Source: a virus
Taxonomy: Duplodnaviria > Heunggongvirae > Uroviricota > Caudoviricetes
DNA: 33,280 bases
Virus record (IMG/VR): IMGVR_UViG_2700989274_000006
Span: 1-33,280 of that record
Strand: one strand, 5' to 3'
The notes beneath the pieces are model-generated. The model did no database searches. It had not been told where the DNA came from and was given only the letters and a program-made list of their open reading frames with translations. Each line of letters begins with the position of its first letter. Position 1 is the stretch's first letter. The translations under genes were made by a program, and so were the position numbers. This document shows, piece by piece, positions 2,223-11,712 of this stretch.

Positions 2223-3077
2223 ATGTCTAATAGTGTTACTAATTTTGAGATGAGCAGCGTTCTACCAGGAAAAAAACCTTGTCAAGGCAAAAACAATGAG
2301 TCACAGGTAGTACAGACTACTCCCATAAAAAAACACTCAGTCACGTTCAAAAATCAATCTTCATTAGGAGTAATTGATCATTATGCCAGACTAACAAATA
2401 AATCTCACTCTTCCGTAATAGCGGAAGTTGTGGATTTGGCTATCCCTATATTAGAAAAATGCAATCGTCATAACTGGTCAATAAATGAAATAAAAAATGA
2501 CCTGTTAAAGTTCTCTATAAAAGAAAGCATCAATCGAAGCCGAGGTAAAACAGAAGTAACTCTGGAAGAGTACTGTTCGTTAATCTGGAAAACGAACATC
2601 ATGAGTCCATTAAAAATCCCCATTGCAGATTACTTTCAACTGAACGCTAATGATGAATTCATGGGGAAAGATGAAAAAACAGTTATACGTGAAAGGCTAT
2701 CCTCGCTGAGGGAAAATTACGATATGGAAAAAGCCATTTACATTTACAATCAACGACATTTTAATGTAAAGCATCAAAGTGTCTCAGGATATTCAAACAT
2801 TATTCTTATTCATAGAACAACCTTTGAGGATTATTACTTTGATGTCGGGCAGACTCTACTCTTGTCAACATCCCAATTAATTATATTCGGGATAAATGAA
2901 GTTCTTAGAAGAAAGGGGATTGTTATGCCTTATCCGGTTGTTTGTTGGATTGATATTTACCATGTCAATGAGATGGTGGTTATGCTGCCAGTGATCCGTA
3001 AAACAGATGTTTCCAACCGTGTTAATGCACCGGATGACATCATTATAAACCCATACTCACAGGAGAGCAGAACCTAA
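2223..3077 (+). CDS. Hypothetical protein with N-terminal ribbon-helix-helix-like segment
   Basis: 284 aa ORF in a markedly AT-rich stretch; the segment KHSVTFKNQSSLGVIDHYARLTNKSHSSVIAEVVDLAI has the beta-strand plus two-helix pattern of Arc/CopG RHH domains; C-terminal ~200 aa unassigned. Confidence 0.45.
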   Translation: MSNSVTNFEMSSVLPGKKPCQGKNNESQVVQTTPIKKHSVTFKNQSSLGVIDHYARLTNKSHSSVIAEVVDLAIPILEKCNRHNWSINEIKNDLLKFSIKESINRSRGKTEVTLEEYCSLIWKTNIMSPLKIPIADYFQLNANDEFMGKDEKTVIRERLSSLRENYDMEKAIYIYNQRHFNVKHQSVSGYSNIILIHRTTFEDYYFDVGQTLLLSTSQLIIFGINEVLRRKGIVMPYPVVCWIDIYHVNEMVVMLPVIRKTDVSNRVNAPDDIIINPYSQESRT

Positions 3078-3103
3078 GAGGTAACAAAGAAGGACAAACA
3101 ATT

Positions 3104-3802
3104 ATGAGAGGTAAAATACTACTTTACCACTCAAAGTATCGCTGGCAATCACGCTCTATTTTTGGTTATTTTTTATACAAAATAACATTATTCAGGTATC
3201 AAAAAATAATTTATGACACCGGAGTGCATCAGATGCGTTCATTTTTTTACACCATATGCAGTAGCGAACAGCAAGAAAGCATTACAGATCATCACTCACT
3301 TGCTGAGATATGCCAAAAATTTAATATTCTACCTGAACATGTTGTGATCGAGCAGGTAGATATTAAAGAGGTTGTTTCAGAGCAACGTTTACTCAGACAA
3401 TTGATTCATCATGAAATGAACCGGCAGGACACGCTTGTCATTCCAGATCTAAGCTGTCTTGGCAGAACTGTGGAGGACTTACAGAATATTTTATTTTTTT
3501 GCCTTCAAAAAGAAATGTTTATCTACAGCTACCATCCAGCTTCAAGGATAGAGCCTTCTGCTGAAAGTTGCTTGTCTTTTTTGATTGCTCGTCAGGATAC
3601 GATTGACATTCACAATCTGAAATCAACTAAAAGCCGATATCGACATGTTAAGAAGAAATTAGGACGAAAGGAGGGAAGCAAATACCGACGTGATATCACA
3701 ATACTTAAGAAAGGTGGATTTACTCAGGCTGAGATTGCAAAGAAATTGAGTATCAGTTTATCGACTGTGAAGCGGCACTGGAATAACGGAATCATCGGTT
3801 AA
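3104..3802 (+). CDS. Serine-recombinase (resolvase)-like protein with C-terminal HTH, probably catalytically degenerate
   Basis: Segment YTICSSEQQ ... LVIPDLSCLGR aligns with resolvase YARVSTSQQ ... LVKKLDRLGR but lacks the Arg equivalents (R8 to I, D67-R68 to S-C); C-terminal HTH GFTQAEIAKKLSISLSTVKRH; alternative start at 3233 (MRSFFYT, GGAG upstream). Confidence 0.5.
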   Translation: MRGKILLYHSKYRWQSRSIFGYFLYKITLFRYQKIIYDTGVHQMRSFFYTICSSEQQESITDHHSLAEICQKFNILPEHVVIEQVDIKEVVSEQRLLRQLIHHEMNRQDTLVIPDLSCLGRTVEDLQNILFFCLQKEMFIYSYHPASRIEPSAESCLSFLIARQDTIDIHNLKSTKSRYRHVKKKLGRKEGSKYRRDITILKKGGFTQAEIAKKLSISLSTVKRHWNNGIIG

Positions 3803-3904
3803 TTCCAGAAGCTAATTGCAGAGTAACTTTTTAACAGCCATCACAGGCTGGGGCTACCTTCGTCTCAAATTTAGATGTTGGATAGGTATTATAATGGCAT
3901 TGTG

Positions 3905-4063
3905 TACTCTTACTACCTGTATTCACCAGTAAGAGTAGTAATCAGATCAGTATATCCGTACTAAGATCTGATACCAGTATATACCGACAACAGTGACCAG
4001 GAATAGCCCTGCCTGTATGGCATCCCTGTACGGTCTGCTATAGACCGTAGGACCAAATACAGG
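3905..4063. promoter_or_regulatory. Cluster of inverted repeats immediately upstream of the YfjJ-like gene (candidate operator or origin-like structure)
   Basis: 9-bp IR tactcttac (3905-3913) / gtaagagta (3929-3937); nested dyad cctgtat (4012-4018) ... tacggtc (4029-4035) / gaccgta (4043-4049) ... atacagg (4057-4063); direct repeats of cagtatat(a/c)ccg at 3948-3990. Confidence 0.3.
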
Positions 4064-4071
4064 TATATATT

Positions 4072-4698
4072 ATGAAAACATATCAAGGTACTCATGGAGT
4101 ACATATCCTCGAATATCAGATCAAGATTAAAAAATTATTATGTTATTTGACTAACCGTTACCCCAGGTTAACGGCGGTACGTGTCGATCTGCATTATCCG
4201 AAGATAGTCGATAACGGAGACAATATCTGCTGTTTCCCTAATCTTGAACCAGGGGTGATATCCCGAATGCGTGATTCCCTCAGAGCTAAACTGGAGGCTG
4301 ACCGTACCCGTAAGGAGCGTGAAGGTAAACGCATCTACCGTTGCCCTTTATTTATTATATGGGCGAAAGAGTATTCTGAATCAGGTAAATGCCACTATCA
4401 CATTTGCCTGTTGTTCAACAAAGACGCTTACTACCACCTCGGGGATTACGATCAGCACGATAACCTGAGAGGGATGATTACGGGAGCGTGGTACAGCGCC
4501 CTGAGACTGGAGAGAGACGATCACCCAGGTCTGGTCCATTTTCCTGATAACTGTAAGTACGTGCTGGATACCAATAATGCTGACTTCCAGCATAACTACC
4601 AAGCGCTGTTAACCCGACTGGATTACCTCACCAAAGTCGAAAGCAAAGTGTTTGGTGAAGGAGACCGTAACTTCGGCTGTAGCCAAATCGATCTGTAA
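4072..4698 (+). CDS. YfjJ/YagK-like protein (inovirus Gp2-type family)
   Basis: 208 aa; recalled similarity to the CP4-57 YfjJ / CP4-6 YagK family (PRLTAVRVDLHYP, CHYHICLLFNKDAYYHLG); position after int-alpA is as in CP4-57; family assignment is from memory, not a search. Confidence 0.5.
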   Translation: MKTYQGTHGVHILEYQIKIKKLLCYLTNRYPRLTAVRVDLHYPKIVDNGDNICCFPNLEPGVISRMRDSLRAKLEADRTRKEREGKRIYRCPLFIIWAKEYSESGKCHYHICLLFNKDAYYHLGDYDQHDNLRGMITGAWYSALRLERDDHPGLVHFPDNCKYVLDTNNADFQHNYQALLTRLDYLTKVESKVFGEGDRNFGCSQIDL

Positions 4699-4707
4699 GT
4701 CGGCAAT

Positions 4708-4737
4708 GGCCTTCTCTTTGTGGGAAGGCCTATTTTA
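4708..4737 (+). terminator. Rho-independent terminator downstream of the YfjJ-like gene
   Basis: GGCCTTC (4708-4714), 9-nt loop, GAAGGCC (4724-4730), followed by TATTTTA. Confidence 0.55.
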
Positions 4738-4785
4738 CGTCAGAGTTCAATAATATAACCAGCAGATAACCTGCCCCCAGGATCT

Positions 4786-5577
4786 TCAATTTGGTGTGAT
4801 TTTTCCACTTTCAGTCATGATAGCGATTGCTTCGTCGATAGTCTGTGTTGTAAAGAGCGAGTTTTCCCTACAGTCCTTGCGAATCACCTTCCTGTTTTTT
4901 TGCACAGAAATGTTCTCGCACCAAGCTAATGTTTCGGCGGCATGCTTTTCTTCCATGCTAATGTCCAAAAAAGCGAGGCGGCTATCAAGGGATTGCATAT
5001 CCTCATTGACAATTGAAGGACTGGATTCTAGGAGGTTCAAACGGTTTTCAACATCGGCAACCTTGCCTTTCACCTGTGAGACGTCTTCCACCAATTTTTC
5101 ATGTCTGTGGATAGCATCAGCAAGTGCTCGTGAGTTTTGGGCCAATATTTCAGCCATTTGCGCGAGGGCAGATCCTTTTGCTTCTGGCGGTGGTGGATAT
5201 ACTCCATGTTTAGTCAACGATGGTATGACCTCATGGAATAACCATTTTTGAAAGCGCTTACCAGCCGCGCTTCGGTCACTCGACATAACTCGATACAAAC
5301 CTGGTTGGGTGACGAAGATCTCTTTCTGACCTTCAAAAACACCATTTTCAGCATCTGTAGTAATATACTCATCGGGGTCAAGAGCCTGTAATTGCGCCCT
5401 GATTATTCCAGCCATCGATTTTACTGTGTAATCAGCGTTGATTTCTCTATTTTCTTTATTCAGCGTGATTAAAACATCTCGTAGTGAGATATATAGAATC
5501 TCACCAAGTATCAATGTTCTTAGATCACTTTCACCAGTCTCACCACGGTAACATATCTTGGTCAGGTTACTATTCAT
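4786..5577 (-). CDS. BRO-N domain protein (phage antirepressor-like)
   Basis: 263 aa; N-terminal Bro-N signature QPGLYRVMSSDRSAAGKRFQKWLFHEVIPSLTKHGVY; coiled-coil-like C-terminus; GAGGA 4-5 nt upstream of the ATG. Confidence 0.6.
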   Translation of the reverse strand: MNSNLTKICYRGETGESDLRTLILGEILYISLRDVLITLNKENREINADYTVKSMAGIIRAQLQALDPDEYITTDAENGVFEGQKEIFVTQPGLYRVMSSDRSAAGKRFQKWLFHEVIPSLTKHGVYPPPPEAKGSALAQMAEILAQNSRALADAIHRHEKLVEDVSQVKGKVADVENRLNLLESSPSIVNEDMQSLDSRLAFLDISMEEKHAAETLAWCENISVQKNRKVIRKDCRENSLFTTQTIDEAIAIMTESGKITPN

Positions 5578-5632
5578 TGATCCTCACATCGCAAAGTATA
5601 GGCACATTCAAATCAGTATCTTTTTTCCTGTG

Positions 5633-5665
5633 CTGTTCTGAGGTGAGTATATCACCTCAGAACAG
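5633..5665. repeat. Perfect 14-bp inverted repeat with 5-nt loop
   Basis: ctgttctgaggtga (5633-5646) / gtata / tcacctcagaacag (5652-5665); lies between the 3' end of the methyltransferase-helicase-T5orf172 operon and the BRO-N gene start; no U-tract on either strand. Confidence 0.5.
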
Positions 5666-5691
5666 GTGGCCAAATTCGGTGTGTCACTTCA

Positions 5692-6870
5692 CTATGCCTT
5701 CACCAGTTTCGCAGACATGGGGTCATAAACATACCCAATGATGCTACCATCCTTAATACGTGCAACAGCCTCATCGATAACGAATAACGGAACGAGAAAC
5801 CATTCCTCGGGCTGTACTGGATGGCCGAAACGGTCGTTAATGGTAATGTTAAGCCTTGCGGGTGCAAACAACCTGTGAAACAGGTTTTCCATCCGGGTGC
5901 GGTTGATGCCTGCAAGCTTGTATGAAGCTACTACCTCGACCTTCGCTAACAGATAGGTGGAATCGTGTTCCGCATTGGCAATACGCGCCTCTACTTTGCC
6001 GCCAGTCACTCCAATCTTGTGAATGACATCACGATGTTCAGCTACATAAGGGTTATCAGATAGCGAACGCAACACATAAATGGTGCCACTTTCTAGATCG
6101 CTCTCTTCTAGAGCATCGCTGAATAAAGGCCCCATGTCTGGATCGGTAATTCGGCGTGCTGTTTCGTCTTTATACAAAGCACGAACCAGTGACAGCCGAA
6201 GTAGGTTGCTTTCCGTACCATTCGAGTAAATGACACGCAGTCGAGCATCTTTCTTCCCCTGTGGCGAATCGAACTCTTCACCTTCCTCAGCCACATAAGC
6301 CGTTTGACCATCCAGGATGAACCAATGGCCCACTTCAATCGTTGCATACTGTCCAAAAGGTCGGGTCACTCTTAACCCTGAACTTAGATCACTGCGCACC
6401 TGTTCAAATAGCGGTTTGAATGTATCAAAATCCTCGCACGGCTTGCGATCCGCGATCCCTTGTACAGCACGCTTTTCGGAGCTAGCACGAACATGACGCA
6501 AGACTGTGATATCGTCCTCGCTGGTAACATCCGCCAGTTCGGCAGCCAAATTATCGATATCGATAAATTCGTCCGCTGACTCCGCTCCCTCCCCCCCTCC
6601 GGCCAACAAGCCCTGATGATCCAGCGGCTCTAGCAAGGCACGGCAGTCTGGGAGACTGCGTAGCCGGTCGAGCCGCACTGCATAGAGGCGCTCGAAGATC
6701 TCACGATCTTCGCCGTGTTGCGGCGCACGTCCATGTTGGTCAGCGAAGCGCTGGATTTCCTCAAAACCTGCGATGATGCGTTCCTCGCTGGCTGGACGTC
6801 CTTTTTTCTTCTCCGGTGGTGCAAATTCGGCAAGTTCTGCCGCCAAATCGTCTAAATCAGAATTACTCAT
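5692..6870 (-). CDS. T5orf172 (GIY-YIG-like) domain protein, third gene of the candidate defense operon
   Basis: C-terminal motifs GTIYVLRS, HKIGVTGGKVEARI, MENLFHRLF, EEWF match the T5orf172 family pattern; preferred start at 6870 (MSNSDLDD, GGAGGG 5 nt upstream, 8-nt overlap with the helicase stop); the longest ORF extends to 6936. Confidence 0.6.
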   Translation of the reverse strand: MSNSDLDDLAAELAEFAPPEKKKGRPASEERIIAGFEEIQRFADQHGRAPQHGEDREIFERLYAVRLDRLRSLPDCRALLEPLDHQGLLAGGGEGAESADEFIDIDNLAAELADVTSEDDITVLRHVRASSEKRAVQGIADRKPCEDFDTFKPLFEQVRSDLSSGLRVTRPFGQYATIEVGHWFILDGQTAYVAEEGEEFDSPQGKKDARLRVIYSNGTESNLLRLSLVRALYKDETARRITDPDMGPLFSDALEESDLESGTIYVLRSLSDNPYVAEHRDVIHKIGVTGGKVEARIANAEHDSTYLLAKVEVVASYKLAGINRTRMENLFHRLFAPARLNITINDRFGHPVQPEEWFLVPLFVIDEAVARIKDGSIIGYVYDPMSAKLVKA

Positions 6871-8908
6871 AATGTCCCTCCGCCCTAAAACGCATAAACG
6901 CGGCTGCACCTTCTGCAAGGTGCTTTTCCCAGGCATCCGGCGAAGTTAACGATGGGAGGCGTCCACGTTCACGTTTGAATTCAGCAGCACGCTTGGCGAT
7001 CACTTTGGCATCTTCAGGCGTGATCGAGGTACGCTTGGCCGAGATGGCCGCCGCGACCTGCTTCAAGCTATCTTCGCTCATTGTCTTAGCAAGGATGGCG
7101 TAGGCTTCACCAAAGGGATTGATGCGGTCGATAAGATCTATGTCTAAATCGCGTACGTCCATCGCAAAGCGACGCACTCCGTCAATAAGGGCAGTATTGA
7201 GCGTCCCATCGTTCTCGCCGTTGACAATACGCTTAGCCTGCTGCGTGAGATTAAGGGCGGCAATAGCGTGCTGACGCACAGCCTCCTGATCTTCAGCGCC
7301 AAGTTCAGGGTACTTTTCTTTGATGATCTTCCCCATACGAACCTGTGTTAATTCTTCAGGAATGAGCTCTTCGTCGAACAGTCCACGTTCGATGGCGGGC
7401 TTATCTTGCACAAAAGCCGCGATCACTTCATTTAAATCTTCCTGGCAGATGCGTGCCGCCTCTTTGCTCCTGGGCTCGGCAAGTCCCTTAATCTCGATTT
7501 GATACGTCCCTGTCTGCTCATTAACACCAAAATTGCAGTTATCCGGGTCATACCCTCCTTCACCATAATCAAAACCTGGGGTCGGGCCGCTTTCTGGGTT
7601 CTTAGGCTTGAACTCGAAGCGCGGAGCCAATACTTGCTCCATCAGCAGGCTTGCCGCGATGGCTTTCAAGGTATCGTTGACTGCCTCGGTGACTGCCCCC
7701 TCTACAGCATCCGGCTCGGCGATCAGGTTAGTAAACCTTGCGCGGGTTTTACCCGGCGCGTCGCGAGTGGCGCGACCGATGATCTGCACGATCTCAGTCA
7801 GGCTGGCACGGTAACCAACGGTCAACGCATGTTCGCACCAGATCCAGTCGAAACCTTCCTTCGCCATACCAAGTGCAATAATGATGTCCACATAATCACG
7901 GTCTGTCTTCATTTCTGCAGCACGGAGACTTTCCTGAATCTTGCCTTGGCTGGTTGGGTCCACCAGGTCAGCAATACGTAACACGCGTCCATCGAGGCAT
8001 TTGACTAGCTGAAAACCAGTCACAGGATCCGCTCCTTGCCAATCGCCAAGCTCGCCGAGAATGTGCTCCACCTCTTTGATTTTATCCTTCGTGCTCTCGC
8101 GCGAATTGACGTTGGGAATATGGATAATGGTCTTCTTGTCAGGATCGAGTACATTGAGGATGTCATCGACGTAGGAGCCACTGTAGAAGAAGTAGCCGAT
8201 ATCGAGTTGCTTGAGGTATTCGTAGCCGTTAAGTTGTTCGTAGTAGGTGTAGGTGACGGTATCGAACCTGGACTCATCCTGAGGAGCCAACACGGCCTCC
8301 GCATCACCCCGGAAGTAGGATCCGGTCATGGCAACGATGTGCGTCTTGTCCCGCGCGATAAACTGCCCCAGCTGCTGACCAAGCTTATTATCCGGGTTAG
8401 CTGACACATGGTGGAATTCATCGACCGCGATCAGGCGATCGTCAAACGCTTCTATACCGTAGGCATCGACCGCGAAGCGAAAGGTTGCGTGTGTGCAAAC
8501 AAGCACCTTGTCACTACTTTCAAGAAAAGAGCCAAAAGATCTTACCTTGCCACCGTTGTCGTTACCGGGCGCGTTGCACAGGTTCCACTTAGGTTCGACA
8601 TGCCAATCAGTCCAGAATCCAAACTGCGATAGCGGTTCATCGTTGAAGCTCGCGCCGATAGATTTTTCCGGCACAACGATGATTGCCTGTTTAATCCCTT
8701 GATTTTCGAGTTTGTCGAGTGCGACGAACATCAGAGCACGACTCTTACCGGAGGCGGGCGGCGACTTGATGAGAAGATATTGTTCTCCGCGCTTCTCATA
8801 GGCCCTTTCTTGCATAGGCCGCATCCCAAGAGCATTAGCCTTGGTCGATGCTCCGCTGCGTGAGTAGGTAACGGAAACGGACGGTACTGATTTAATCTTG
8901 TTGCTCAT
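6863..8908 (-). CDS. SF2 DExH-box helicase/translocase (type III restriction Res-like ATPase)
   Basis: 681 aa; Walker A SPPASGKS, motif II VDEFHH, motif III MTGS, motif VI QIIGRATR; ~250 aa C-terminal extension of unknown function; start overlaps the methyltransferase stop (ATGA). Confidence 0.8.
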   Translation of the reverse strand: MSNKIKSVPSVSVTYSRSGASTKANALGMRPMQERAYEKRGEQYLLIKSPPASGKSRALMFVALDKLENQGIKQAIIVVPEKSIGASFNDEPLSQFGFWTDWHVEPKWNLCNAPGNDNGGKVRSFGSFLESSDKVLVCTHATFRFAVDAYGIEAFDDRLIAVDEFHHVSANPDNKLGQQLGQFIARDKTHIVAMTGSYFRGDAEAVLAPQDESRFDTVTYTYYEQLNGYEYLKQLDIGYFFYSGSYVDDILNVLDPDKKTIIHIPNVNSRESTKDKIKEVEHILGELGDWQGADPVTGFQLVKCLDGRVLRIADLVDPTSQGKIQESLRAAEMKTDRDYVDIIIALGMAKEGFDWIWCEHALTVGYRASLTEIVQIIGRATRDAPGKTRARFTNLIAEPDAVEGAVTEAVNDTLKAIAASLLMEQVLAPRFEFKPKNPESGPTPGFDYGEGGYDPDNCNFGVNEQTGTYQIEIKGLAEPRSKEAARICQEDLNEVIAAFVQDKPAIERGLFDEELIPEELTQVRMGKIIKEKYPELGAEDQEAVRQHAIAALNLTQQAKRIVNGENDGTLNTALIDGVRRFAMDVRDLDIDLIDRINPFGEAYAILAKTMSEDSLKQVAAAISAKRTSITPEDAKVIAKRAAEFKRERGRLPSLTSPDAWEKHLAEGAAAFMRFRAEGHYE

Positions 8909-11712
8909 GCATTAGTTCTCACTTTACGCTTCTTGCCTTTGGCCGGTGCAGCAGAAGCGGCCATCTTTATATAAAGATCAAATAGCTTTTCAAGCCGCTC
9001 TGTATCATTCTTAAAGCGACGGCCGATGTAGATGCGCTCCAGTACTTCATCATTGCGATCATGCGCAGCCCGCAGATCAGTAGGCATGTTAGCAGGATCG
9101 TATAGGTCCGCGATGGTCGCGGGAAAATGATGCTCACGCGCCAGAAGTATGTCCTCCGCGCAGCGTGTGAGGTCAGCCTTGTTTTTTTCTGTGAGTTTTG
9201 GTACTGGGAAGGTGTTCCAGCCGAGGGTGTTAGAGTAGCGGTAGCGTGTTTCCAATTTTCCGCAGATGGTGGCGATCCAAACCAGGTGTAGACGAGATGC
9301 AATGAGCGCAAGATTCCAGAGCGGAGCGTCGTAGAGAGCAAAGGCGAGGTTACTGACTACCGAATGATTATCAATCAGTCCAACAGGAAGATACTCGCGC
9401 CCTTCCGATGAAACCCCCGGTAGAATCAGCGTGTGCTTGCCACCGTGATACATTTCGCGAAACTGATGAGCCCGTGATGCTAACTCATTCGTACCAGCAT
9501 CTTTACTTTTGAGCCGCATTTCCCGAACGCCATCAATCCGACCCCGAATAGACGCAATCTCCAAAGCTTGCGGCAATTTTACATCAGGGATCCAGAGGCA
9601 CTTACGTACTACTCCGCGAATAAACTCGGCAGAACCATAGATGCGCCGAAGAAATGTCTCTTCATCCTGCTTGCTCAAACCGAGCGAAACCGCGTCATCC
9701 GCCGATAACAAAAGATTTCCCCCATCGACGGGCATGTTGCCAAAAGACATATCCGGCAGACCCGATATGCTCTTGCGCTGGCCCTCGACTACAACATCCT
9801 CACCAACACTCAGATAGGGCGTGATGTTTGTCGCCTCGCGTACAGTAGTTTGGCCATTGCGGTCCAAGTCGTAAAGTAGCCTTGTCTTACTCACATCCGT
9901 AGATAGGCCGACGATAGCGACTGTTACACCCGCGTTGTGTGCAGCAAGGTTCGTCCATTTGAAGCTGGAGTGCGCGAAGCGAATGTGGGAGCCACATTTG
10001 AAAATTGCTGGCCACAGGATAGGAACAATTCGGCCTTGACAGATAGAGTTGGTGCTAACAAAAGCCGAATCCGTTGGTGTGGCTTGCGCGTAGGCAGCAG
10101 CTTTCATGAACCAACCACCAACATAATCGATTTGTTTAGACGAAATACCATAAGGTTCAAATACCGAAGCCAAATCCGCTTTCTGCTCTTTAGTCTGCGT
10201 TTGGCTACCTTTGTAAGGTGGGTTACCACAGATGTATGTCTCCCCACCTTCGTTCTGAAAGCCAATCTCTGCTTGACCGAGAGGCGTCTCAAAGAGGTTA
10301 TCTGCCTGCAACTTCACGCCAATTCCGGACGGAGGGCAAACGCTCAACCAATCAATCCGCAATGCGTTGCCACATGTAATCCAATTATCATTACGCAGAG
10401 GAAGAAACTCGGCCAGTGCAAGTTTTAGTCCCCGGTACACCACATCGCACTGATACTCAGCAATAACTAGCGCGAGACGGGCAATCTCCGCAGGGAAATC
10501 TCGTATTTCGATCCCGCGAAAGTTGGTAAGAGGGATGTCAGAGGCATTATCCATCTCGCCACGTCGTCGATTAATCTCGGCCTCGATGGCTCGCATTTCC
10601 TTGTACGCAATCACTAAGAAGTTGCCAGATCCACATGCTGGGTCGAATACGCGGATTCGGGCCATACGCTTGCGCAGATTGAGCAGCATGCGCGGATTGT
10701 CACCGGCTTCATCCAGTTTCGCCCGCAGTTCGTCGAGGAATAGTGGGTTAAGCACCTTGAGTATATTGGGGACACTAGTGTAATGCATTCCCAACTCACC
10801 ACGCTCTTCGTCTTCGGTAATGGCCTGAATCATCGAGCCGAATATGTCTGGGTTGATTTTGGTCCAATCCAGATTGCCAACATGTAGAAGATAGGATCGC
10901 GCAATACGGCTGAAGCGCGGTACCTCCTCACTTCCCGAGAAAAGAGCGCCGTTTACATAAGGAAACTCAGCAGCCCAACGCGGGATACCGACAACACTTC
11001 GCTCATCGCGTGGGGTGTTCATTGCACGAAACAACGTGGCGATGACCTCGTGCAAATTAGAAGCGTCGCGCTCACTCATCTGCGCAATAGTGTCAGTAAA
11101 GCGCCCCTTGCCTATAAATATGTCAGTGTCTTCGGCGAAAAAGCAGAAAATTAGACGCGCCATGAACTTGTTCATGTCATGACGACGCCCCGAAGTACCC
11201 CATTCAGGATTGTCTTTTAACAGTTCGACGTACAGGCGGTTCAAACGGCTAGTAGCACGGATGTCAAAGGCGTCTTCGCTGATCTGCCGAACAGTGCTGA
11301 TACCTGCCAATGGCAAAAAGAAGCCGAAGTGATCGGGAAAGTCTTTAAAGGCACAAGCCACAGTCTGACCACTGTTGAGGTCCTCGGCTTCAAAGTATTT
11401 GCCGTCCGTGGCAAGGATGAATTTCGCCTTGGCCTTGCCTGTTGCCGGGCTGGCCTTAAGTGCAGCCAGCATCTGTGTGACTTGGCCCCCTTCACTGGCC
11501 AGAATGTGGATGTTGTTTGTCTGAAGAACACCACCCAAGTCGGACTTATTCGATGCCCCGGCGCGCAGACGTTTGATGGTCGTTTCCTTGTTACCAAAGG
11601 CTTCAAGAAAAGCATAAGGAAACTCTATAGGATCAAAGGGTTGTTCCGCAAGATCCGTGATGGCTTGCTCAATTTCTACGGCGTTCATTTGCGTACAGTT
11701 CTCCATTGGCAT
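8905..11712 (-). CDS. MmeI-family (type IIG/IIL-like, YeeA-like) N6-adenine DNA methyltransferase, apparently without endonuclease motif
   Basis: 935 aa; SAM motif I FDPACGSGNFLV, catalytic motif IV GNPPY; further MmeI-family blocks MARLIFCFFAEDTDIF, LGMHYTSVPNILKVLNPLFLDEL; no PD-(D/E)xK seen in the N-terminal ~120 aa. Confidence 0.85.
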   Translation of the reverse strand: MPMENCTQMNAVEIEQAITDLAEQPFDPIEFPYAFLEAFGNKETTIKRLRAGASNKSDLGGVLQTNNIHILASEGGQVTQMLAALKASPATGKAKAKFILATDGKYFEAEDLNSGQTVACAFKDFPDHFGFFLPLAGISTVRQISEDAFDIRATSRLNRLYVELLKDNPEWGTSGRRHDMNKFMARLIFCFFAEDTDIFIGKGRFTDTIAQMSERDASNLHEVIATLFRAMNTPRDERSVVGIPRWAAEFPYVNGALFSGSEEVPRFSRIARSYLLHVGNLDWTKINPDIFGSMIQAITEDEERGELGMHYTSVPNILKVLNPLFLDELRAKLDEAGDNPRMLLNLRKRMARIRVFDPACGSGNFLVIAYKEMRAIEAEINRRRGEMDNASDIPLTNFRGIEIRDFPAEIARLALVIAEYQCDVVYRGLKLALAEFLPLRNDNWITCGNALRIDWLSVCPPSGIGVKLQADNLFETPLGQAEIGFQNEGGETYICGNPPYKGSQTQTKEQKADLASVFEPYGISSKQIDYVGGWFMKAAAYAQATPTDSAFVSTNSICQGRIVPILWPAIFKCGSHIRFAHSSFKWTNLAAHNAGVTVAIVGLSTDVSKTRLLYDLDRNGQTTVREATNITPYLSVGEDVVVEGQRKSISGLPDMSFGNMPVDGGNLLLSADDAVSLGLSKQDEETFLRRIYGSAEFIRGVVRKCLWIPDVKLPQALEIASIRGRIDGVREMRLKSKDAGTNELASRAHQFREMYHGGKHTLILPGVSSEGREYLPVGLIDNHSVVSNLAFALYDAPLWNLALIASRLHLVWIATICGKLETRYRYSNTLGWNTFPVPKLTEKNKADLTRCAEDILLAREHHFPATIADLYDPANMPTDLRAAHDRNDEVLERIYIGRRFKNDTERLEKLFDLYIKMAASAAPAKGKKRKVRTNA

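Follow-up and report, generated by a model that had tools for sequence, protein, structure and literature searches.

The dyad cluster upstream of yagK in a CP4-6-type island is a conserved structure that may serve as a folded mRNA leader

In a CP4-6-type island, a cluster of conserved hairpins fills the stretch between a promoter-like element and the start codon of the HUH-type gene yagK, and the last of them takes in the Shine–Dalgarno (SD) sequence of the gene. We interpret these dyads as a folded leader at the 5′ end of the yagK mRNA, which would restrict translation, rather than as a DNA substrate, with a probability of roughly 0.55. This reading is favored because the hairpins lie between a conserved −10-like element and the ATG, because wobble pairs are biased to the sense strand, because inclusion of the SD is conserved, and because the region evolves in a clade-specific, structure-preserving manner. 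Against it stand the 14-nt promoter spacer of the allele studied here, thin covariation, and C·A mismatches in the first hairpin.

The window (the whole stretch of DNA analyzed, 33,280 nucleotides) begins with genes in the order of the CP4-6 island:

1–1326, intF
1443–1883, yagN
1880–2104, AlpA-like helix-turn-helix (HTH) gene
2223–3077, yagM
3104–3802, + strand, yagL, encoding a degenerate serine-recombinase-like protein with a C-terminal HTH
4072–4698, + strand, yagK, encoding a 208-aa protein of the YagK/YfjJ family (formerly ‘Inovirus Gp2’) with HUH-type fold and motifs

As judged from sequence identity, the dyad region is the yagL–yagK spacer of a CP4-6-type island. This 269-bp spacer (3803–4071) matches that of E. 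coli ECC-1470 at 100% identity and that of K-12 at 98.5%. Among 5,426 complete E. coli genomes, 367 carry it, usually in a single copy. A REP or MITE-like repeat was ruled out because the leader is single-copy in each genome. No tRNA gene was found in the window. The elements within the dyad region are the following:

3905–3937, + strand, hairpin 1: 10-bp stem TACTCTTACT (3905–3914)/AGTAAGAGTA (3928–3937) with a 13-nt loop that includes CCTGTAT
3941–3972, + strand, hairpin 2 outer stem: ATCAGATC (3941–3948)/GATCTGAT (3965–3972)
within 3941–3972, + strand, hairpin 2 inner stem: AGTAT/GTACT, loop ATCC
3974–3985, + strand, conserved element CCAGTATATACC with the palindromic core GTATATAC (3977–3984)
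4012–4063, + strand, hairpin 3, in two tiers: an outer helix and an inner hairpin
4012–4020 with 4053–4063, + strand, hairpin 3 outer helix: CCUGUAU(GG) with (CC)..AUACAGG, including the SD AGG at 4061–4063
4029–4049, + strand, hairpin 3 inner hairpin: TACGGTCT (4029–4036)/AGACCGTA (4042–4049)

The first-pass annotation had described a cluster of nested dyads and direct repeats here, and the cluster is real: every repeat it listed is present, with small corrections, and the region folds beyond chance. The nested pair is as described, CCTGTAT (4012–4018)/ATACAGG (4057–4063) enclosing TACGGTCT/AGACCGTA. The first inverted repeat also exists, but with a stem of 10 bp and a gap of 13 nt in place of the 9 bp and 15 nt originally given. 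The direct repeats share CAGTATAT at 3948 and 3975, but the formula cagtatat(a/c)ccg proposed for them is inexact because the copies differ by one base in length (continuations CCG vs ACCG). Hairpin 2, which was absent from that annotation, is the best conserved of the hairpins. Its arms hold two GATC (Dam) sites, at 3944–3947 and 3965–3968, and one or the other of these is missing in K-12, L010, and L012. Secondary-structure prediction, which had been suggested as a check, gave MFE z-scores of −4.0 for the + strand RNA, −3.7 for the − strand RNA, and −4.1 for the DNA; the region thus folds about 4 standard deviations better than the null of dinucleotide shuffles (n = 200) as RNA of either strand or as DNA, and 0/200 shuffles folded as well as the dyad region.

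Conservation was assessed on 80 homologous loci encoding YagK relatives of 37–97% identity, in nearly all of which the nearest upstream open reading frame of at least 100 aa ends at least 149 bp before the gene. Leaders of the CP4-6 type comprise 22 distinct variants, taken from genome loci and metagenome matches and originating from Escherichia, Mixta, Brenneria, Pseudocitrobacter, Citrobacter, Photorhabdus, Yersinia, Klebsiella, Edaphovirga, and uncultured organisms. A pattern scan of metagenomes was too degenerate and returned mostly chance matches; filtering with BLAST yielded approximately 24 true loci. The RNAalifold consensus of the 22 variants contains hairpin 2 and the inner tier of hairpin 3 (25 pairs), and 98.4% of the cells at these predicted pairs are paired, vs approximately 30% when the partners are slid by 1–3 columns. 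All outer-stem cells of hairpin 2 and 98% of those in its inner stem are paired. Double-sided changes appear at one pair only in the automatic alignment, so that covariation is thin among these related sequences; 16 further pair types occur across the predicted pairs, nearly all of them G·U. Both leader subgroups retain hairpin 1; within one of them, two positions of its stem show T-A to C-G exchanges. Three further variants (L239–L241), from loci of 68–73% protein identity, follow the same plan and have the helix that pairs the SD with its complement, and the leader is retained at L011 and L239, where yagL is not upstream.

Farther out in the family the picture is mixed. Leaders with z below −2 are 10 of the 12 from the clade of at least 78% identity and 8 from groups of 55–59% identity, some of which share ACGG...CCGUAGG (seen in homologues of 56% identity) or have a CCUGUG...CACAGG hairpin ahead of the SD. 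Homologues of approximately 45% identity keep the catalytic motifs, and their leaders are unstructured, with z near zero; therefore, the dyads do not everywhere accompany the conserved catalytic core. The comparison of regions upstream of homologous genes, another check that had been proposed, thus gives a divided answer: the dyads are kept down to about 68% protein identity, but distant leaders are short or unstructured. The recurrence of the hairpins across genera nevertheless bears out the view of the dyads as a conserved cis element tied to yagK, and no chance cluster.

The same data weigh on the idea that the repeats have no function, being remnants or side effects of CWGTAY words that recur in an AT-rich spacer silenced by H-NS. 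This motif, which was defined post hoc, occurs in 6 copies within 146 bp, compared with 67 in the whole 33-kb window. Between leader subgroups, identity is 85–98% for the upstream module at 3812–3895 (see below), 70–86% for the coding sequence, and 65–78% for the leader; the leader is therefore less conserved than the coding sequence, as a functionless spacer might be, and hairpin 2 is weakened in K-12 and L240. However, pairing stays at 98% across genera despite 22–35% sequence divergence, and compensatory and wobble-only changes occur, which makes an absence of function improbable.

The pattern of one-sided changes reveals which strand folds. In hairpin 2 and the inner hairpin 3 taken together, G·T on the + strand accounts for 46 cells (14 distinct column-types) vs 1 cell for A·C, with 23 G·U-type and 0 A·C-type departures in hairpin 2 and 23 and 1, respectively, in the inner hairpin 3. 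If there were no strand preference, approximately half of the one-sided changes would be expected to be A·C. Transitions give either kind of mismatch equally, and the 46:1 bias therefore means that the + strand folds on itself. The bias fits a + strand RNA and a + strand single-stranded DNA alike and cannot distinguish between them. Hairpin 1 is without strand bias because several close relatives carry C·A mismatches in it, and the − strand would read these as G·U.

The first-pass annotation had offered a complex operator as one of two functions for the region. In such an arrangement, the palindromes would form a double-stranded array that binds dimeric proteins controlling yagK transcription, with YagL, the AlpA-like YkgV, RcdA, and H-NS as candidates. 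YagL combines an HTH with a serine-recombinase-like core, the changes in the arms of hairpin 1 are symmetric and free of strand bias, and GTATATAC is a conserved perfect palindrome. In K-12, genomic SELEX with RcdA recovered the yagL–yagK spacer (PMC3535384), and a promoter table marks the spacer HNS (PMC3946193). The sequence TTGTGTACT at 3900–3908 resembles the RcdA box TTGTnTACA and is not kept in the other leader subgroup; this likeness could explain the recovery by RcdA. Against an operator, a 46:1 wobble bias in hairpin 2 and the inner hairpin 3 is unexpected for a symmetric duplex site, the stems stay paired while their sequence changes, the leader persists where yagL is missing upstream (L011, L239), and the sites begin past the −10 element and run as far as the SD. 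An operator is thus unlikely as an account of the whole region: the strand bias speaks against it for hairpins 2 and 3, but it is possible for hairpin 1, which is unbiased, and for GTATATAC, and YagL could bind at either of these two sites.

The third hairpin connects the structure to translation. Its outer helix is found in 22/22 variants, with duplex energies of −6 to −15 kcal/mol, and always holds the AGG, located 8–10 nt before the ATG. In one subgroup the helix reads CCUGUAU(GG)/(CC)AAAUACAGG and in the other CCUGUGUGG/CCACAUAGG, a difference that amounts to a compensatory A-U to G-C exchange plus a G·U; MAFFT misaligns this helix between the subgroups. With a predicted pairing probability of 0.83, the SD region ranks fourth among 33 neighboring genes (median 0.57), so that predicted occlusion of the yagK SD is above the median and unexceptional among its neighbors. 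The SD region also has alternative pairing partners at 3916, 4025, and 3978–3985. The last of these falls within the CCAGTATATACC element, which is exact in 19 of the 22 leader variants, is changed in L239 and L241, and is complementary to GGTATATA at 4062–4069, with which it pairs in the MFE fold. This long-range pairing (3978–3985/4062–4069) was rejected as a conserved feature, since the changes in L006–L008, L012, and L013 are not compensatory. A leader peptide was rejected as well: the short open reading frames (12 aa from 3894 and 8 aa from 4017) are not kept in the other subgroup.

A model for a folded yagK leader can be drawn from these features. Transcription would start just past the TATAAT at 3890–3895, probably near 3902, or would read through from yagL. 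The resulting leader RNA of approximately 170 nt would contain two 5′ hairpins (3905–3937 and 3941–3972) and a two-tier 3′ domain (4012–4063), in which the closing helix would pair the weak SD AGG (4061–4063, 8 nt before the ATG) with the upstream CCUGU. Translation of the HUH-type protein would then stay low unless this helix is opened; candidate openers are a protein, an RNA (antisense or otherwise), and ribosomes coming from upstream.

The sequence that would drive transcription of this leader belongs to a compact module that directly precedes the dyads:

3812–3827, + strand, block 1: CTAATTGCAGAGTAAC, starting 10 nt past the yagL stop codon
3835–3855, + strand, block 2: CAGCCATCACAGGCTGGGGCT, with a 5-bp hairpin CAGCC/GGCTG
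3870–3895, + strand, promoter-like element: TTTAGA (3870–3875), a 14-nt spacer, and TATAAT (3890–3895)
3877–3893, + strand, block 3: GTTGGATAGGTATTATA, overlapping the TATAAT at 3890–3895

The three-block, 85-bp module, including GTTGGAWAGGTAWTATA (3877–3893), occurs in much of the family, across Enterobacterales, Aeromonas, and Vibrionaceae, and is kept to approximately 40% protein identity (Aeromonas, Aliivibrio). It is found both behind yagL-like genes and behind a 470-aa gene carrying DUF3987. Block 1 occurs once in the window and, allowing up to 3 mismatches, is found upstream of yagK/yfjJ homologues down to approximately 40% identity, whatever the upstream gene. Block 2 is conserved in many loci, and its arms co-vary (CTGCC/GGCAG in L029 and CATTG/CAATG in L019); in L040 and yfjJ-type loci, its hairpin is followed by a T run and was flagged as terminator-like, and block 2 may weakly terminate transcription of the upstream gene or act as an insulator behind it. 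No other non-coding sequence of the yagK/yfjJ family is as well conserved as block 3. Block 3 has 32 exact matches in viral contigs, 12 of which precede a yagK-like gene, and across the family it lies between 86 and about 460 nt from the start codon. Hairpin 1 begins approximately 10 nt past the family-wide −10-like TATAAT.

The module is without a conserved −35 element, and the strength of the promoter may differ between alleles. A TA insertion in K-12 turns TTTAGA-14-TATAAT into TTTAGA-16-TATAAT, which genomic SELEX has assigned as a constitutive sigma-70 promoter, and RNA polymerase holoenzyme binds the yagL–yagK spacer in K-12 (PMC3946193). Most relatives share the 14-nt spacing of the window allele, which a consensus scan does not score as promoter-like; a sigma-70 promoter scan gave no site for this allele. 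The length polymorphism of the TA repeat lies at 3888–3891, between GGTAT and TATAAT. The 16-nt spacer, and with it a consensus-like sigma-70 promoter, is found in K-12, in Mixta (L003), and in some metagenome variants, and in L122 the repeat is duplicated further. Judging from these sequences, the polymorphism may switch promoter strength.

The second function that had been proposed for the dyads is that of a DNA substrate for the adjacent protein. The gene starting at 4072 is Gp2-type (YfjJ-like), as annotated: it is yagK, and its product matches PF11726 (now YagK_YfjJ_C) with E = 8e-66, and PF23343 (REP_ORF2-G2P) weakly. In an alignment of 24 homologues, extending down to 38% identity, the residues Arg37 and Asp39 (RVDLH), His108 and His110 (HYHICLLF), and Tyr185 and Lys188 (YLTK) are invariant. 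We take these three segments to be motifs I, II, and III of HUH endonucleases. YagK retains the three HUH motifs together with an HUH-like fold; a PDB sequence search and PADLOC returned nothing for YagK. The ‘inovirus’ label attached to the family is not reasonable. The yagK family was not found in verified phages: of 50,697 phage records a single one matches, an unverified contig of 4.5 kb. Matches on plasmids are to F′ or other large plasmids, apart from three records under 40 kb, of which two were checked: one, of 11.7 kb, is a misassigned chromosomal contig and the other is the unverified contig just mentioned. YagK as a plasmid or phage Rep was accordingly rejected, with no verified phage and no genuine small plasmid among the checked records. 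A preprint on integrase-AlpA islands of Pseudomonas lists a Gp2-like protein as frequent and likely of core function, and assigns no function to it (10.1101/2024.08.29.610337). In the Salmonella record L203 (CP101363.1, 10352–11560), two yagK-family genes stand in tandem, 27 nt apart; although deposited as a plasmid, this contig is chromosomal and includes an integrase-AlpA island.

If YagK nicks DNA, the dyads could be its binding or nicking substrate, as extruded or single-stranded hairpins, in an origin or oriT used for rolling-circle replication or mobilization after excision by IntF. Such a role is consistent with the retained motifs I–III and HUH-like fold, with the tendency of origins and oriTs to adjoin the initiator gene and contain hairpins, and with the presence beside the dyads of a non-coding module that is more conserved than the coding sequence. 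The strand bias does not refute an origin or oriT, because a + strand single-stranded DNA hairpin would give the same bias. However, the hairpins are not family-wide: they are confined to the clade of at least about 68–78% identity and some groups of 55–59%, homologues of approximately 45% identity with catalytic residues have unstructured leaders, and only 3812–3895 is shared by the whole family. Furthermore, a 3′ helix built around the SD is a feature of an mRNA, and the phage and plasmid searches uncovered no autonomous replicon. We therefore consider the proposal that the dyads are an origin substrate of YagK to be unlikely, given the inclusion of the SD, the restricted distribution, and the lack of autonomous replicons among the records searched. 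A conserved nick site of YagK, if there is one, would more likely lie in block 3 (3877–3893) than in the dyads. A broader version, in which YagK and YfjJ are active HUH nucleases and the module at 3812–3895 (especially GTTGGAWAGGTAWTATA) together with the hairpins forms the nick site or origin, is likewise doubtful. Were it true, excised islands would replicate or mobilize as single strands, and the folded leader would couple synthesis of the initiator to replication or mobilization of the island.

The recombinase-like neighbor raises the question of whether the region is an invertible segment. A perfect 10-bp inverted repeat, TACCTGTATT (3914–3923)/AATACAGGTA (4056–4065), bounds a segment of 132 bp that YagL might flip in a form of phase variation, and the adjoining gene resembles Mpi-type invertases. 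However, the inverted orientation was found in 0 of the 368 locus-carrying E. coli genomes (5,426 searched), and an invertible element was rejected on this count. L006, L007, and subgroup B also lack the inverted repeat, the segment does not include the promoter-like element, and YagL reads as a protein without the catalytic Asp-Arg pair, leaving inversion with a probability close to nil. The matches of YagL to Resolvase and HTH_7 are weak, that to the Mpi invertase (42 bits) is far under the cutoff, and a PDB sequence search gave no match. Where serine recombinases have YARVSTxxQ and LDRLGR, YagL reads YTICSSEQQ and LSCLGR; Ser-Cys replaces the catalytic Asp-Arg, and the Arg before the Ser is missing. 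YagL thus looks like a serine-recombinase-like protein that has lost its catalytic residues. Its orthologues are 187–194 aa long, which would fit a true start at Met44 (3233), the probable initiation site. Annotations of yagL vary among ‘ECF-type sigma factor’, ‘recombinase family protein’, and ‘winged helix-turn-helix regulator’.

Antisense control is common for the Rep and transposase genes of mobile elements, and the leader could be the target of a − strand counter-transcript, as in rolling-circle plasmids, IS10, and IS200. The − strand of the dyad region folds as well (z = −3.7), and the C·A mismatches of hairpin 1 would be G·U pairs on it. Nevertheless, no − strand promoter-like site and no terminator-like site, either an intrinsic terminator or an attenuator, was found in 3600–4300; hairpins 2 and 3 favor the + strand; and no antisense 3′ end falls inside the leader in a Term-seq supplement. 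A sense/antisense pair is for these reasons distinctly improbable. More generally, two Cappable-seq supplements and one Term-seq supplement contain no mapped transcription start site or 3′ end inside the leader; all that they show close by is a Rho-dependent end in yagL, at K-12 position 293,252. Searches for known RNAs gave no relevant match with Rfam 15 in the window interval 3000–5000 at E of 1 or below, C4/IsrK included, or in a scan of six related loci at E of 0.1 or below. Our literature search found no paper describing the yagK leader.

A folded yagK leader can be compared with several characterized systems. In IS200, the HUH transposase gene tnpA has a 5′ UTR whose stem-loop sequesters the SD and holds expression down. 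yagK is likewise a gene of the HUH superfamily on a mobile element with a leader hairpin predicted here to occlude the ribosome-binding site. Unlike the tnpA 5′ UTR, to which it has no sequence or Rfam relationship, the yagK leader is much longer and has three hairpin domains; the protein family and the type of element (an integrase island) differ as well, and no antisense RNA was found. Rolling-circle plasmids such as pT181 and pMV158 have structured rep leaders under the control of counter-transcripts. The yagK leader is also a structured stretch between a promoter-like element and an HUH gene, but no attenuator terminator or antisense promoter was found for it, and the element is not a plasmid. 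With filamentous-phage and rolling-circle origins, including the gpII nick site, the locus shares a hairpin-rich non-coding stretch beside an ‘Inovirus Gp2’ gene, and strand-specific folding of the dyads would fit the single-stranded DNA of rolling-circle or single-strand origins. In contrast to filamentous-phage origins, the yagK family is absent from verified phages, and the dyads are clade-specific and include the SD. The immunity leader of phage P4 (CI RNA, seqA/seqB/seqC) offers a further parallel, in that the yagK leader sits in a P4-type integrase island and has several short copies complementary to one downstream site: CCUGUA is present three times in the leader and complementary to UACAGG. 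Unlike the P4 leader, it has no C4/IsrK match, and its repeat copies are not all kept between subgroups. The yagK leader would be an ordinary kind of regulatory device and would resemble the SD-occluding leaders of mobile elements in function.

The yagK/yfjJ-type genes are among the commonest uncharacterized core genes of P4-integrase/AlpA islands. In enterobacteria, vibrios, aeromonads, and pseudomonads, these islands hold cargo for defense and virulence. The observations support a family that keeps the HUH catalytic set and has the same short module upstream everywhere, to which the CP4-6 clade adds a leader covering the ribosome-binding site. The more interesting question concerns the role of the HUH protein and the family-wide module in excision, replication, and transfer of the island.

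The cargo beside yagK (4786–11712, − strand) encodes a BRO-N protein, a GIY-YIG/T5orf172 nuclease, a DEAD/DEAH helicase, and a Type IIG enzyme. PADLOC identified the last of these, a restriction-methyltransferase of 935 aa, with E = 3e-283 and gave no match for the other three proteins; the module is probably a defense module. Past approximately 12–13 kb, the window loses collinearity with the ECC-1470 island, and the segment from about 12000 to 31600 matches the late region of lambdoid prophages (lysis, terminase, portal, capsid, and tail) at 97–98% identity. The CP4-6-type left arm thus adjoins phage morphogenesis genes in the window.
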